From IMG/VR virus record IMGVR_UViG_3300021357_000002, positions 6,979 through 70,978 of that record: DNA of 64,000 nucleotides; one strand, written 5' to 3'. Positions 18,048-20,673 of the stretch are shown here, piece after piece. Positions within the stretch are counted from its first letter, which is position 1. Each line of letters opens with the position of its first letter. Made by a program: the position numbers and the translations under genes. The stretch is from a virus. Below the pieces are notes generated by a model. It saw nothing but the letters and a program-made list of their open reading frames with translations, was not told the DNA's origin and did not search any database.

Positions 18048-18129
18048 AAAATAATCAACGTATTCGGAAGTGAGATATACTTGGCGCGTATCTCTGTAAA
18101 TATACTGATTCAATACACTTAAAGAGATA

Positions 18130-18300
18130 TTGGTTGCCCATTATTAATCACACCGGGCCAGTGCGCCAGATTCTGTTATGAGGAACTGGAATACCTCACT
18201 GACTTATAAGCTATTAAGCCGCCATCAGAACAACATCATCGTTTGCATTTATGTTTTATGGTTCGTTTCTAAAAAACCGCATAATCGCTTACGAAAACTA
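18130..18300 (-). ncRNA. tmRNA-like mRNA domain encoding ssrA-type tag ANDDVVLMAA* (tag 18246-18214)
   Basis: AUAAAU-GCA resume context, tag begins AND and ends AA, TAA TAG inside a hairpin, pseudoknot upstream and two downstream; no tRNA-like domain found. Confidence 0.7.
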
Positions 18301-18305
18301 TCAAA

Positions 18306-18400
18306 GAGTACACTTACCCTGGTTTAGGAGTTGAACCTAATTGGGAAGTAGTTTACGAACATTTTTCACTTCTTTCGCGGTAACCACGATAAATGTACTC
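18306..18400 (-). ncRNA. tRNA-like structured RNA with 13-bp terminal stem
   Basis: GAGTACATTTATC/GGTAAGTGTACTC stem plus T-arm TTAGG-TTCAACT-CCTAA. Confidence 0.55.
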
Positions 18401-18428
18401 ATTGATAGGATGTTCATTATTTACTTGA

Positions 18429-18583
18429 GAAGATTCTGTATCACGTCTGATTATTGAGGTCAGGATTTGCACCTGAGATACCTTCCTTTCGGGAGAGTCG
18501 CTGAACTATCTATGGATTCCATAATAGACTCGCCAGTCTTATTACTTTCACCATAACCTGCGTTACACTCAATCAGAATCTTC
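18429..18583 (-). ncRNA. structured RNA with T-arm-like hairpin
   Basis: GAAGATTCTG/CAGAATCTTC terminal stem; TCAGG-TGCAAAT-CCTGA; AGACT-GGCG-AGTCT. Confidence 0.5.
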
Positions 18584-18599
18584 ACAACTAAACAATTAA

Positions 18600-18740
18600 G
18601 CTGGTTAGGCCAGCAACTCCCTGAGTTCGATAACAGAGTTCTAGTACTCTGGTATGTCCGGTTATTAAGCCTTCTATACAGGACAGGGTATACCTGTTTT
18701 AACTCTGCTTCCTCTAAGGAAAGCAATCTTCGGGTTACTA
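18600..18740 (-). ncRNA. multi-hairpin non-coding segment
   Basis: Hairpins at 18725-18706, 18697-18683, 18651-18634, 18614-18600. Confidence 0.4.
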
Positions 18741-18841
18741 TGGCAGCATAGTAAAGAGAACACTGTATGGGACTCGAACCCATCAAAAGTCACACAGCGC
18801 TATGGACGTCCACCTGTCAATGTCCTCATTACTATGCGCTG
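18741..18841 (-). ncRNA. tRNA mimic with extended acceptor-like stem and 3' CCA
   Basis: GCATAGTAA-T-GAGGACATT / AGTGTTCTC-T-TTACTATGC, T-arm ATGGG-TTCGAGT-CCCAT, ends TGCCA. Confidence 0.55.
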
Positions 18842-18900
18842 GTTTAAGCAGAGCCAGCTTGCTATCCCAATCGTCGTAGTAAAACGACAATTTGAGTTTA

Positions 18901-19077
18901 TTACGCTGGGAAGAAGAAATTCATCGTTTTATTATAACCAGCATCGATAATATCCATCTTGTGAGGACGGTCCATACGTTTGGCTACACGAGATTTTACT
19001 TCTGCTCTGCGAATTCGATGAGACATACTACGACGCTCTGCACGATTAGGTCCAGAGTTCATTTGGATATAACGCAT
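18901..19077 (-). CDS. small Arg-rich protein inside the tRNA cluster (58 aa, not in ORF track)
   Basis: AAGGA RBS; MRYIQMNSGPNRAERRSMSHRIRRAEVKSRVAKRMDRPHKMDIIDAGYNKTMNFFFPA*. Confidence 0.65.
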   Translation of the reverse strand: MRYIQMNSGPNRAERRSMSHRIRRAEVKSRVAKRMDRPHKMDIIDAGYNKTMNFFFPA

Positions 19078-19099
19078 TGGGATTTTCCTTGTATTGATT

Positions 19100-19185
19100 T
19101 GGTGGGAGTAACGAGATTCGAACTCGTACAGCTATAAGCCGAGGGATTTTAAATCCCTTGTGTCTACCGATTTCACCATACTCCC
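19100..19185 (-). tRNA. tRNA-Leu(TAA)
   Basis: Cloverleaf, AGGGA-TTTAAAA-TCCCT anticodon arm, long variable arm, encoded CCA. Confidence 0.95.
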
Positions 19186-19187
19186 AT

Positions 19188-19264
19188 TGGTACACCCTAC
19201 TGGATTCGAACCAGTGACCTACTGCTTAGAAGGCAGTTGCTTCTATCCACTGAGCTAAGGATGC
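19188..19264 (-). tRNA. tRNA-Arg(TCT)
   Basis: ACTGC-CTTCTAA-GCAGT, T-loop TTCGAAT, CCA. Confidence 0.95.
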
Positions 19265-19265
19265 T

Positions 19266-19430
19266 TAGTACCCTCGTTTTGTCCGATGGTGAGGGTCCCC
19301 ATCTTCGTGCGCTTGGCTGGACTACCAGTTATTCATTTAAGAGTATGGCTATGAGAGGCAGGAAGCCCAGCCTTTTTACATACTAATAAACATACCGACC
19401 GGTCACGGATTGCAGAGTTACCTGCAAGTA
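19266..19430 (-). ncRNA. structured spacer RNA with H-type pseudoknot
   Basis: TTGCAG/CTGCAA hairpin, GGCTGG/CCAGCC stem, pseudoknot GATGG/CCATC plus ACCCTC/GAGGGT (19303-19270). Confidence 0.45.
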
Positions 19431-19506
19431 TGGCGATGGGATAGGGATTTGAACCCTAATATCACAGATTAACAGTCTGCTGCTTTACCGAGTTAGCTAT
19501 CCCATC
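19431..19506 (-). tRNA. tRNA-Asn(GTT)
   Basis: CAGA-CTGTTAA-TCTG, CCA. Confidence 0.93.
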
Positions 19507-19511
19507 ATAAT

Positions 19512-19597
19512 TGGCGGAAGATTGAGGAGTCGAACCCCTACCGTTACCAGCACCTCCGGGTTCAAACCGGATTGCCCACCACTGAGCGGAATCTTCC
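19512..19597 (-). tRNA. tRNA-Ser(TGA)
   Basis: TCCGG-TTTGAAC-CCGGA, long variable arm, G discriminator, CCA. Confidence 0.9.
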
Positions 19598-19600
19598 AAA

Positions 19601-19683
19601 TTCTTATTAAAGAGTCTCTAACCATCAGCGGTGAGGTAACACCCAATGGATGTTAGACTTGGCTAGAGACTCATTAATAAGAA
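19601..19683 (-). ncRNA. long-stem structured RNA
   Basis: TTCTTATTAA-T-GAGTCTCTAGCCA / TGGTTAGAGACTC-T-TTAATAAGAA with internal AACATCC/GGGTGTT hairpin. Confidence 0.5.
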
Positions 19684-19687
19684 CTTT

Positions 19688-19767
19688 TGATGAGGTGAGA
19701 CTCGAACTCACGTTCCTTCCCTTTGCCTAAGCATTGGTATTGTATTTGCCTATTATACGACTCATCA
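19688..19767 (-). pseudogene. pseudo-tRNA / tRNA-like RNA lacking a canonical anticodon loop and CCA
   Basis: Acceptor TGATGAG/CTCATCA, D stem GTAT/ATAC, T-arm GTGAG-TTCGAGT-CTCAC; anticodon arm has a 4-nt loop. Confidence 0.7.
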
Positions 19768-19775
19768 GGTTCCTG

Positions 19776-19900
19776 TTCTCGTTCACAGTGTCAGTTGTCT
19801 ATTCCAAACAGTCAATGGTCTACTCCCATCGTCGAGAAATTACCCTTTCCTATCGGGCCGCAACTACAAGTGTATTCCCCTAAGAGATACGAACTGTAGT
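19776..19900 (-). ncRNA. structured spacer RNA
   Basis: ACTACA/TGTAGT and TTCTCG/CGAGAA stems enclosing smaller hairpins. Confidence 0.4.
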
Positions 19901-19908
19901 CTATTGGA

Positions 19909-19985
19909 TGGTTGTCTCAACTAGATTCGAACTAGTGACCTTTCCCTTATCAGGGGAACGCTCTGACCTACTGAGCTATGAGACA
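19909..19985 (-). tRNA. tRNA-Ile(GAT)
   Basis: TCCC-CTGATAA-GGGA, CCA. Confidence 0.93.
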
Positions 19986-19988
19986 ATT

Positions 19989-20066
19989 TGGTGGTTCCAC
20001 CCGGTTTCGAACCTGGACACTCTCGGTTATGAGCCGAGTGCTCTAACCAGCTTGAGCTATGGAACC
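19989..20066 (-). tRNA. tRNA-Met(CAT), probably elongator (Ile2 not excluded)
   Basis: CTCGG-CTCATAA-CCGAG; paired G1-C72; U4-A69. Confidence 0.9.
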
Positions 20067-20071
20067 ATATA

Positions 20072-20158
20072 TGGCGGAAGATACAGGATTCGAACCTGTG
20101 GGACATTACATCCTATCGGTTAGCAACCGACTGCTTTCGGCCTCTCAGCCAATCTTCC
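20072..20158 (-). tRNA. tRNA-Ser(GCT)
   Basis: TCGG-TTGCTAA-CCGA, long variable arm, CCA. Confidence 0.93.
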
Positions 20159-20164
20159 AGTATT

Positions 20165-20248
20165 TGGTGTGGGATGATGGATTCGAACCACCGCGCCTTT
20201 CAGTGAGGATTTACAGTCCCCCGCAATCGACCACTCTGCCAACCCCAC
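20165..20248 (-). tRNA. tRNA-Tyr(GTA)
   Basis: GGGA-CTGTAAA-TCCT, variable arm, CCA. Confidence 0.93.
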
Positions 20249-20257
20249 ATATTTAGA

Positions 20258-20367
20258 TGGGCTTCTCACCCAATTGGACATTTGTTCTCTACTCCGCACC
20301 TAGCCTAATGGCTGTCTCAGCGTTTTGTTCCAGTGTCTACTGGAAGGTCTTCAGGTAGCGCTGAAGA
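20258..20367 (-). ncRNA. string of four hairpins between tRNA-Pro and tRNA-Tyr
   Basis: TCTTCAG/CTGAAGA, TTCCAGT/ACTGGAA, AGCC/GGCT, TGGGT/GCCCA. Confidence 0.4.
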
Positions 20368-20370
20368 TTT

Positions 20371-20447
20371 TGGTCAGGATAAGAGGACTTGAACCTCTGA
20401 CAGTCTGCTCCCAAAGCAGGCGCTCTACCAAGCTGAGCTATATCCTG
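20371..20447 (-). tRNA. tRNA-Pro(TGG)
   Basis: CTGC-TTTGGGA-GCAG, C1-G72, CCA. Confidence 0.93.
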
Positions 20448-20453
20448 TAAATA

Positions 20454-20634
20454 TTTAATCGACTGATATCTTTAGGGGACCACTCTCATTTCCCCACATT
20501 TCGGATGACTAGTACACCTTAGTGGTACGTCACTTGGCTTGCTATAAAGGTAGGAGCCTACTCCCTCGAATGACCTCACACCATATGCCTACGAATGCTT
20601 TCACAAGTTGCTGACAAGATATCATGCGATTAAA
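20454..20634 (-). ncRNA. ~180-nt structured RNA closed by a 16-bp terminal stem
   Basis: TTTAATCG-CA-TGATATCT / AGATATCA-GT-CGATTAAA with internal hairpins GTGAC/GTCAT and GGGGA/TCCCC. Confidence 0.55.
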
Positions 20635-20647
20635 TACTTCAATCTTT

Positions 20648-20673
20648 CCAAAGAGAGCACCGAAGGTGCTTAA
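20648..20673 (-). promoter_or_regulatory. class-2 template-strand hairpin element (copy 2), heading the RNA cluster
   Basis: CCAAAGAG-AGCACC-GAA-GGTGCT-TAA. Confidence 0.5.

Follow-up and report, generated by a model that had tools for sequence, protein, structure and literature searches.

The tRNA gene clusters of bacteriophages T4 and T5 also encode non-tRNA stable RNAs between the tRNA genes (rnaC and rnaD in T4; RNA I, III, IV, 1, 2, 2H, 3 and X in T5), as a preliminary description of the DNA studied here had stated and as GenBank annotation confirmed. Some of these RNAs are tRNA-like and some are closed by long terminal stems. Release by RNase P and 3'-end nucleases is established for phage tRNA clusters, and RNase III release of a prophage sRNA has been shown for DicF from the dicBF RNA. 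Phage tRNAs can also act against anticodon nucleases: tRNA-Tyr of T5 and SP15 against retron-Eco7, tRNA-Lys, Thr and Asn against PARIS, and tRNA-Lys against PrrC. Supplementation with tRNAs against such nucleases is established for other phages (PMC11555353, PMC12409363). A reduced tmRNA reported in phage DS6A, which inhibits the tmRNA of E. coli and is devoid of a tag frame (PMC11915505), is the opposite half of tmRNA to the one described below.

We analysed a window of 64,000 nt (virus record IMGVR_UViG_3300021357_000002, positions 6,979 to 70,978; coordinates below are those of the window). The source is an Ithacavirus (N4-like), a Salmonella phage. A minus-strand block of ~2.7 kb holds nine tRNA genes, one ORF of 58 aa and ~13 non-tRNA folded units. 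As in T4 and T5, some units are tRNA-like and some are closed by long terminal stems; in sequence the block and the T4 and T5 RNAs share tRNA matches only. A common stem with a U.U mismatch and swappable heads is not annotated in T4 or T5, and the tmRNA-like tag RNA that ends the block is absent from both.

Layout of the block and its tRNA genes

All nine tRNAs of the preliminary description were found, each on the minus strand and with an encoded CCA: tRNA-Pro(UGG) at 20371-20447, tRNA-Tyr(GUA), Ser(GCU), Met or Ile2(CAU) and Ile(GAU) at 19909-20248 with spacings of 3-6 nt, tRNA-Ser(UGA) and Asn(GUU) at 19431-19597, and tRNA-Arg(UCU) and Leu(UAA) at 19100-19264. The tRNAs relevant to PrrC and PARIS, tRNA-Lys(UUU) and Thr(UGU), are absent from this genome and optional in its relatives. 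It had been stated that nearly every gap between tRNAs is a structured RNA; this could apply at most to the three long gaps (122, 311 and 166 nt), as the other five of the eight measure just 2-6 nt. The non-tRNA units sit in these three gaps and in a 0.9-kb tail, about half of them downstream of the last tRNA.

The 58-aa ORF (18901-19077, minus strand) was likewise confirmed. It is basic, is preceded by an RBS, shows synonymous changes and is conserved in Humphriesvirinae and Triduovirus at 61-97%. No family was found for it: PHROG scores were weak (E 0.01 or worse) and the Atlas gave no match. The protein resembles N-like antiterminators in composition only.

At its downstream end the block is bounded, as described before, by a strong intrinsic terminator (18047-18020, minus strand), and an AT-rich hairpin (I7, 18089-18129, minus strand) follows the tag RNA. 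Upstream, the block begins before 20648, with unit I5 and a conserved sigma70-like promoter candidate (20798-20827, minus strand, TTTACA-18-TATAGT). Ithacavirus, Pylasvirus and Triduovirus share both of its boxes, although the spacer between them has diverged. The hairpin at 20648-20673 (plus strand, thus in the template strand), earlier taken as a promoter candidate, has a GAA loop and four similar copies in the genome. It is conserved, and in TR2 its stem is altered yet kept. An N4 vRNAP promoter has a GNA loop centred at -11 with a fixed spacing to the start. Such promoters are confined to the left end (PMC4496689). The hairpin lies far from the left end and belongs to a second class, with 12 nt from CC to the loop against 9 nt in the early-class copies. 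We rejected it as an N4 vRNAP promoter and regard it as no more than a putative promoter.

The ten close relatives compared carry ~790 nt after the 58-aa ORF that are absent here and encode an ORF of 202 aa; in SP154 a terminator precedes this ORF. A single transcript from 20648 to 18021, as proposed before, would thus be peculiar to this genome. Few informative loci came from searching viral contigs on the terminase side.

Folded units between and after the tRNAs

The preliminary description had counted about ten folded units, several with long terminal stems. The terminal stems of I1-I6 are 20-27 nt long with z -3.5 to -8.3, to be read against random early-region windows (mean -1.4, sd 1.5) and with unit borders picked from the repeats themselves. 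Compensatory changes, whose absence was to speak against the units, were found in I4, B, NR, J and the tag RNA. Judged by sequence, I4, B, NR and the tag RNA have strong structural support, and J, G, I5 and C moderate support; I1 and I3 are supported by fold only, and for the Pro-Tyr gap and unit A the support is weak. The Rfam comparison proposed earlier returned the tRNAs and, at E up to 10, sub-threshold tmRNA matches; none of the non-tRNA units matched at gathering score. Self-cleaving ribozymes and riboswitches of Rfam were found neither in the block, at gathering score or at E up to 10, nor in 14 related loci.

All units lie on the minus strand. I5 (20662-20780; z -5.0) is a cassette of a U.U stem enclosing a predicted head of 95 nt; compensatory changes affect 5 of 34 pairs among 5 sequences. 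It is followed by I4 (20449-20639), a stem-closed multi-hairpin RNA of 191 nt with 16 of 43 pairs compensated and 98% of cells paired (0 of 500 shuffles). I4 has sharp edges between relatives and occurs in 29 records, Ackermannviridae included. In SP-076 and SP-058 its slot is occupied by tRNA-Lys. The Pro-Tyr unit (20250-20369) is an optional cassette of 120 nt with two T-loop-like hairpins (z -1.5; 2 of 15 pairs compensated), missing with exact edges from most relatives and present as a 77% copy in Erwinia N4-like phages. Several units come and go between phages in this manner, as cassettes with sharp edges.

Unit A (19770-19906) is conserved in sequence, with homologues in TR2 and MY01 (z -0.7; compensatory changes in 3 of 26 pairs and breaks in 9 of 104 cells). 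Unit B (19688-19767) is tRNA-shaped, with acceptor, D and T arms, and shows compensatory changes at 14 of 24 pairs among 7 sequences. It was rejected as a functional tRNA: a variable short-loop hairpin replaces the anticodon arm, there is no 7-nt anticodon loop and no encoded CCA, and neither ARAGORN nor Rfam called it. I1 (19598-19686; z -8.1) is a U.U stem cassette with a predicted head of 65 nt, whose homologues are too similar for covariation. NR (19266-19430) is a multi-stem RNA of 165 nt with a possible 3' pseudoknot, found in 17 records; among 9 sequences, 16 of 46 pairs show compensatory changes. Short motifs in NR had suggested a hammerhead or group I element, but the core is incomplete and Rfam gave no match.

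In the tail, two small hairpins (18838-18892), of which the GCUGG/CCAGC hairpin recurs in Sf11-like phages, are followed by I6/G (18741-18837), a canonical RNase III-type stem with a T-arm head of 76 nt predicted at 18828-18753 and a 3' flank ending in CCA. The idea that G is a CCA-ended tRNA decoy was weakened, as the predicted cut splits the head from the CCA and the head also occurs in other stems, in Carvaje and SH19. Unit C (18600-18738; z -1.7) is a row of conserved short hairpins in which 5 of 27 pairs show compensatory changes among 9 sequences. I3 (18413-18599; z -4.5) has a U.U stem and a tRNA-shaped head of 159 nt with tetraloop arms; among the loci compared its homologue was in SP154 only, and none was found in E. 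coli genomes or metagenome contigs. I2/J (18298-18408; z -6.3) has a canonical RNase III-type stem and a T-arm head of 99 nt predicted at 18401-18303, and head J is also present in N4, G7C and TG1. YrlA and Y RNA mimics of tRNA have a permuted order with the T arm first; in both G and J the T arm is last, and this identity was rejected. The sole Y_RNA match of the Rfam scan (E 0.68) overlaps tRNA-Asn.

From these sequence features we infer that the units are discrete RNA species.

A tmRNA-like tag RNA at the end of the block

The last RNA unit (18131-18302, minus strand, ~172 nt) carries two pseudoknots, an antisense arm at 18301-18274 and a tag frame at 18246-18214 that reads ANDDVVLMAA and a stop; this copy ends in a 3' ACCA. 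It matched the Rfam models of tmRNA (RF00023) and of the coding piece of two-piece tmRNA (RF01849, RF04321) at 24-28 bits, below gathering (24.0 bits where the cutoff is 50, and 28.4 where it is 47), and ARAGORN found no tmRNA in this genome. Like tmRNA it has the U85/A86 resume context, a tag of ten codons ending in AA, the stop in a hairpin and pseudoknots after the tag. Unlike tmRNA it starts at the arm, which is antisense to host tmRNA, and there is no acceptor piece.

Homologues were found in 721 phage records. In module searches that used portions of the tag or the arm as anchors, the frame had ten codons in 94 of 94 genuine modules, with silent changes, and ended in a hydrophobic residue and Ala with rare exceptions; TAAAT stood before GCA in 94 of 96, which keeps the U85/A86 resume context. 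Ten of 18 pairs are compensated; pk2 and pk3 covary and stem 1 of pk1 is ambiguous. From the sequence we identify the tag RNA as the message domain of a tmRNA that lacks the tRNA-like domain. The tmRNA module proposed earlier is thus tmRNA-derived, but without acceptor stem, D loop and T arm it could not rescue ribosomes on its own. An alanine-type acceptor (G3.U70) or obligatory partner for it was not found among the T arms of the block. Unit J was rejected as the missing tRNA-like domain, as N4 and TG1 have J without the tag RNA and the reverse holds for VpaE1, Sf11, Magnus, PGN829.1 and S5.

The preliminary description had read the block as an anti-defence arsenal, in which the tRNAs replace cut ones, tRNA mimics (here the tRNA-shaped B, G, J and I3) decoy the nucleases and a tmRNA module frees ribosomes stalled by toxins. 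Rescue by tRNA-Tyr and Lys from retron-Eco7, PrrC and PARIS is published, Tyr and Asn tRNAs are present in the block, B, G and J keep their T loops, and the fast turnover of cassettes fits an arms race. We nevertheless consider this reading unlikely. The genome has no tRNA-Lys or Thr, the mimics have no anticodon loops, the part that anticodon nucleases cut, and a T loop occurs in just 9 of 52 head families. Besides lacking a tRNA-like domain, the tag RNA is antisense to host tmRNA, and J and the tag RNA are each found without the other. Of the earlier claims, a tRNA shape is supported for B, G and J; most units are not tRNA mimics and vary freely between phages. Of the tRNAs known to counter such nucleases, Tyr and Asn are present and Lys and Thr absent. 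None of our results links a non-tRNA unit to defence, and no report of a defence role for such units was found in the literature searched.

Complementarity of the tag RNA arm to host tmRNA

The 5' arm of the tag RNA is complementary to nt 72-106 of host tmRNA, with -29.0 kcal/mol for E. coli and -28.6 kcal/mol for Salmonella (p about 0.001 in three controls). The best tmRNA-pairing site lay on the same part of tmRNA in 42 of 44 arm variants, which are related and thus not independent evidence. We found neither an antisense RNA of tmRNA like the tag RNA nor stem-closed cassettes of the present type in the literature searched.

The arm could act in cis only, by forming pk1 and masking the tag RNA's own resume codon, with the tmRNA match a relic and the tag RNA a decoy of bS1, SmpB or the ribosome, or a free template for stalled ribosomes. 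In single-strand folds the arm also folds back on the GAAAC and the resume region of the tag RNA itself, and its GCGG is homologous to pk1 of host tmRNA, so that the match may come from descent. Covariation between arm and target was not seen: in five of six matched hosts the target was unchanged and in the sixth it was uncompensated. That host, Pantoea eucrina, has a changed target (ANDETY, a variant found in none of 151 family genomes), without a matching change in the arm (-24.3 kcal/mol). Other observations make an arm confined to cis rather improbable to us. A perfect match of 10 nt spans host tag codons 3-6, a part in which the tag of the phage deviates from that of the host; 94 of 96 upstream variants preserve GTTTTCG, but only 77 the cis partner AGAAAC; and in most variants pairing with the host is ~6-15 kcal/mol stronger than pairing with the own tag.

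Stems with a U.U mismatch and exchangeable heads

Five stems of the block (I1, I2, I3, I5 and I6) have a U.U mismatch under a 9-bp helix in common. No such stem appeared in 40 shuffles, and the remaining 61 kb held two weaker ones. Near homologous modules U.U was the mismatch in 52 stems, and no other mismatch occurred in more than 11. The stems were compared with the RNase III substrate consensus (PMC1540722), that is a helix of ~11 bp with a distal box UA,UG and a proximal box GC, AU/UA, AU and a weak pair. I2 and I6 agree with it in the distal box, pb1, pb2 and the mismatched pb4, and the canonical distal box is missing in I1, I3 and I5. In the proximal box pb2 is A-U and pb4 is U.U in all five stems and pb1 is G-C in four; pb3 is G-C in all five, where the consensus has A-U. 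Lambda-type stems match the proximal box in full, and T7 R1.1-type RNase III sites are among the closest known parallels. We regard the U.U stems as putative cut sites of host RNase III.

In other phages homologous stems carry dozens of unrelated heads. Three stem types carry 36, 12 (the I2/J type) and 4 (the I6/G type) head families, and some heads are common to several types. Stems and heads are thus exchanged independently, which makes the array a platform for variable RNA cargo.

The lambda late-leader stem (NC_001416, ~44783-44869) belongs to the same family, with its U.U under a 9-bp helix topped by CAUU/AGUG. Its cut positions are reportedly those of Daniels 1988, and the predicted head, 44796-44857, measures 62 nt. 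The stem encloses the LPR2 probe (44816-44850), and LPR2 is a defined lytic, Hfq-bound RNA of ~63 nt, in a paper that gives no ends and leaves RNase III unmentioned (bioRxiv 10.1101/2024.10.31.621285). A head of the predicted size has thus been seen by northern in lambda. The block differs in having five stems in tandem with tRNAs, pb3 G-C and unrelated heads.

The start of the tag RNA adjoins the 3' arm of a stem in 22 variants and a sigma70-type promoter in 16, and here the predicted 3' cut of I2 coincides with its 5' end. That the stems stay uncut, as end-protecting clamps or recombination landmarks with many heads neutral or selfish passengers on a strong transcript, would fit pb3 G-C, the three non-canonical distal boxes, the long terminal stems of T5 RNAs and the fold-only support of I1 and I3, but is very improbable given the U.U fixed 9 bp below the head, the box match of I2 and I6, the size of LPR2, the cut predicted at the tag RNA 5' end, and heads G and J conserved across phage families with compensatory changes.

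Proposed mechanism and its meaning

We give slightly better than an even chance to an RNA cassette array processed by RNases III, P and E, with the tag RNA docking on host tmRNA. Host RNase P and 3'-end nucleases would free the tRNAs and the units between them. The preliminary description ascribed the release of neighbouring RNAs to tRNA processing; RNase III-type stems explain it better than tRNA processing alone. Host RNase III would cut the U.U stems at the mismatch, and each head would be freed as an RNA of 65-160 nt with a 9-bp stem as its clamp. For the tag RNA, the best-defined cargo, the I2 cut would set the 5' end in this phage, and a promoter would do so in others. The arm of the tag RNA would then pair over the host tmRNA resume codon and first tag codons, which would mask the host tag template and unfold the tag RNA's own resume codon. 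If this pairing occurs, host trans-translation would either be blocked or be switched to the phage tag, two outcomes that we regard as about equally likely. The tRNAs probably replenish host tRNAs destroyed during infection.

A bolder reading, which we hold to be doubtful, is that the tag RNA is a trans-acting replacement message and the cassettes a general RNase III-released system in hundreds of enterobacterial phages. The tag RNA would dock on host tmRNA and borrow its alanyl-tRNA-like domain and SmpB, ribosomes would resume on the phage tag, and lambda LPR2 would be the first member of the cassette system seen.

For decades no function has been assigned to the stable RNAs that T4 and T5 encode among their tRNA genes. 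If exchangeable heads share one processing stem, exact RNA ends become predictable. The tag RNA has gone unannotated in more than 700 sequenced phages, Felix O1-like, ViI-like and P1/P7-like phages included. Should this RNA base-pair with the tmRNA of the host, phages would possess a natural antisense inhibitor, or a hijacker, of trans-translation, which is an antibiotic target.

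Source genome and transcription of the block

Matches to the region at 93–97% identity were obtained for the Salmonella N4-like phages SP154, S5, FSL SP-076 and SP-058, which are classified as Ithacavirus (Schitoviridae, Humphriesvirinae). The genome is 71.4 kb long and its opening 30 bases are repeated 1.4 kb before its end. The block of tRNAs and small RNAs is encoded on the minus strand, and the gp69-like and terminase genes run divergently from it. A segment of ~790 nt, located 3' of the 58-aa ORF in 10 of the 10 close relatives compared, is missing in this genome. A short microhomology was found at the junction (18894–18904), and the absence is either a real deletion or an assembly artefact. 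In the relatives the segment encodes a 202-aa coiled-coil-like ORF, preceded by a terminator as read in SP154; within the genus the tail is therefore probably transcribed separately from the tRNA part. A conserved sigma70-like promoter candidate was located at 20827–20798. The hairpin at 20648–20673 was likewise conserved; it is one of four copies of a class with a spacing unlike that of the early vRNAP-type hairpins. This second GNA-loop class, with CCAAAG 5' of each hairpin, was found at 2419 and 20661 in the window and 1642 and 3922 bases before it; the four hairpins are candidate middle (RNAPII) promoters.

Inventory and conservation of the RNA units

ARAGORN detected nine tRNAs and no tmRNA in the region, with gaps between the tRNAs of 122, 6, 5, 3, 311, 5, 166 and 2 nt. 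The preliminary description had placed a structured RNA in nearly every gap, which holds for the three long gaps but not for the others of just 2–6 nt. About 13 non-tRNA units were located within the long gaps and the 0.9 kb 3' of tRNA-Leu, and a fourteenth, I5, directly upstream of the originally proposed island start. The cmscan comparison of the island with Rfam, which had also been proposed, recognised none of the non-tRNA units. Six units are closed by imperfect stems of 20–27 nt, with folding z between -3.5 and -8.3; z alone is not decisive, as the repeats had served to choose the unit borders, and z in the early region is -1.4 on average.

Comparative tests were more telling than folding z. 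Units were gained and lost with sharp edges among relatives: in SP-076 and SP-058 tRNA-Lys took the place of I4, the Pro-Tyr unit was cleanly missing from most relatives, I3 was seen in SP154 alone among the relatives compared, and As2 lacked I3, I2 and the tmRNA-like tag RNA, all three together. The proposal of structured RNA units was supported by compensatory pairs in I4 (16/43, with 98% of cells paired, exceeding each of 500 shuffles and every slid control), B (14/24), NR (16/46) and the tag RNA (10/18). Such pairs were also detected in J, the RNA enclosed by the I2 stem (4/23), C (5/27) and I5 (5/34); given small alignments of related sequences, all these counts amount to support and not to proof. 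In unit A and the Pro-Tyr unit the sequence was conserved, with weak structural support. We concluded that discrete RNAs are very probably made from the well-supported units.

U.U stems with exchangeable heads

I1, I2, I3, I5 and I6 are alike in having a U.U mismatch beneath a 9-bp helix. Scanning for this shape gave five matches in the island and two weaker ones elsewhere in the window; 40 shuffles yielded none. Near homologous modules 52 U.U stems were counted, and no other mismatch reached more than 11. Mapped onto the RNase III consensus boxes of Pertzev and Nicholson (PMC1540722), I2 and I6 contain the canonical distal box, pb1 and pb2, while pb4 is mismatched as in T7 R1.1; pb3 is G-C, not the consensus A-U, in all five island stems. 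A related lambda-type stem, present in at least 120 viral contigs, fits the consensus fully. RNase III is likely to cut I2 and I6. The enclosed heads are exchangeable: unrelated heads of 36, 12 and 4 families were found in three stem types, some heads are common to more than one type, and G (the head of I6) and J recur in Carvaje, SH19, N4 and the T4-like phage TG1, enclosed by different stems.

Lambda has one stem of the U.U type, just downstream of tR'. For the late transcript of lambda, RNase III sites were recorded by Daniels in 1988, reportedly at +209 and +270. T7 early RNAs are cut three bases below pb3, and by this rule the predicted lambda head is 62 nt long (44796–44857) and encloses the position of the LPR2 probe (44816–44850). 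LPR2 was reported as a single lytic, Hfq-bound band of ~63 nt, not linked to RNase III (bioRxiv 10.1101/2024.10.31.621285). We infer that LPR2 is the head released by RNase III, and this match is the strongest external support for the release of such heads as discrete RNAs; release by RNase III from a prophage polycistron has been shown for DicF. By analogy with LPR2, I4, NR, B, G, J, I1, I3 and other units may be independent regulators or sponges.

Several other features were observed in this and related loci. At 18838–18860 and 18600–18614 lie two GCUGG/CCAGC hairpins whose loop contains UAA, and the motif recurs within several heads and ahead of tRNAs in Sf11-like phages; it is a possible protein-binding signal, with the basic 58-aa ORF as a candidate reader. 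A hammerhead-like core, scoring below Rfam gathering in L055, was found in the lambda-type stem head of L055, L068, L081, L092 and L110, ~125 nt after the tag resume codon. Klebsiella phage Magnus (L035:4337–4551) has an Rfam STnc100 match within the same kind of RNA island. In KpCHEMY26 (L003, ~1495–1925) the anticodon arm of tRNA-Pro is interrupted by a ~350-nt insertion resembling an HNH endonuclease frame, possibly an intron, and in Pylas (L033, 1472–1547) a tRNA with the amber anticodon CUA occupies the Arg(UCU) slot.

The tag RNA and its antisense arm

The tag RNA (18302–18131, minus strand) matched 721 phage records, from Schitoviridae, Felixounavirus, Ackermannviridae, Sf11-like and P1/P7-like phages. 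The suggested tmRNA module was borne out in part: the frame reads ANDDVVLMAA-stop, the resume context (PMC8363625) retains U85 and A86, and two pseudoknots covary, but the tRNA-like domain is absent. The frame is 10 codons long in all 94 modules and shows silent changes; its peptide occurs in many variants, nearly all ending in a hydrophobic residue and Ala; this conservation is biased by search patterns that fixed parts of the tag or arm. In 22 variants the 5' end lies directly after the 3' arm of a stem and in 16 after a sigma70-type promoter, and the same start reached by two routes adds support for stem cleavage. J was rejected as a partner of the tag RNA, since the presence of J and of the module were not linked across phages. 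The tmRNA database (PMC11915505) rejects forms without CCA positions, and the sole reduced phage form cited there is the opposite half to the tag RNA. No published description of the tag RNA or stem cassettes was found in the literature searched, which comprised few subscription papers. Environmental viral contigs (L292, L321, L328, L287, L291 and others) contain apparent true two-piece tmRNA coding pieces lacking the antisense arm, with tags such as ANDDIYALAA. Pantoea eucrina differs from the other enterobacteria checked: its tmRNA (L392) has the tag ANDETYAPAAI... and comes from a longer gene of 381 nt.

The 5' antisense arm of the tag RNA, its first 28 nt, is predicted to form three helices with E. 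coli tmRNA nt 72–106, covering the pk1 3' strand, the resume codon and tag codons 3–6. The duplex energy was -29.0 kcal/mol, compared with -18 ± 2 when either the tmRNA or the arm was shuffled, and was equalled by 1 of 900 phage 28-mers of equal GC; Salmonella and Klebsiella tmRNA gave -28.6 and -29.0 kcal/mol. A perfect 10-nt match sits where the phage's own tag differs. Against pairing, part of the arm descended from pk1, the arm can cover the tag RNA's own resume codon by folding in cis, and no arm covariation was seen in Pantoea eucrina. On balance we favour pairing of the arm with host tmRNA, with some reservation.

Implications

The preliminary description saw in the block an arsenal protecting translation from anticodon nucleases and ribosome-stalling toxins. 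Supplementation by tRNAs against retron-Eco7, PrrC and PARIS has been published (PMC11555353, PMC12409363), and tRNA-Tyr and tRNA-Asn are present in the block. However, this genome has no tRNA-Lys or tRNA-Thr, the anticodon loops at which these nucleases cut are absent from the tRNA mimics, and by itself the tag RNA cannot rescue ribosomes. Protection of translation is kept here as a rival reading rather than a finding. Stable RNAs were already known from phage tRNA clusters; none of these is homologous to the island units.

The cassette structure, the stem motif, the tag frame and the complementarity are observed features. In the mechanism we propose, the block would be transcribed and then processed by RNase P, E and III, and the arm would pair with host tmRNA, masking the host template and freeing the phage's own. 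A resulting switch of tagging to the phage tag is doubtful. Because host and phage tags both end in Ala-Ala, and given the preferences of ClpX and SspB, the probable effect of such a switch would be to tune degradation and not to abolish it. The island is a real feature, and one of its units could be a new mechanism.
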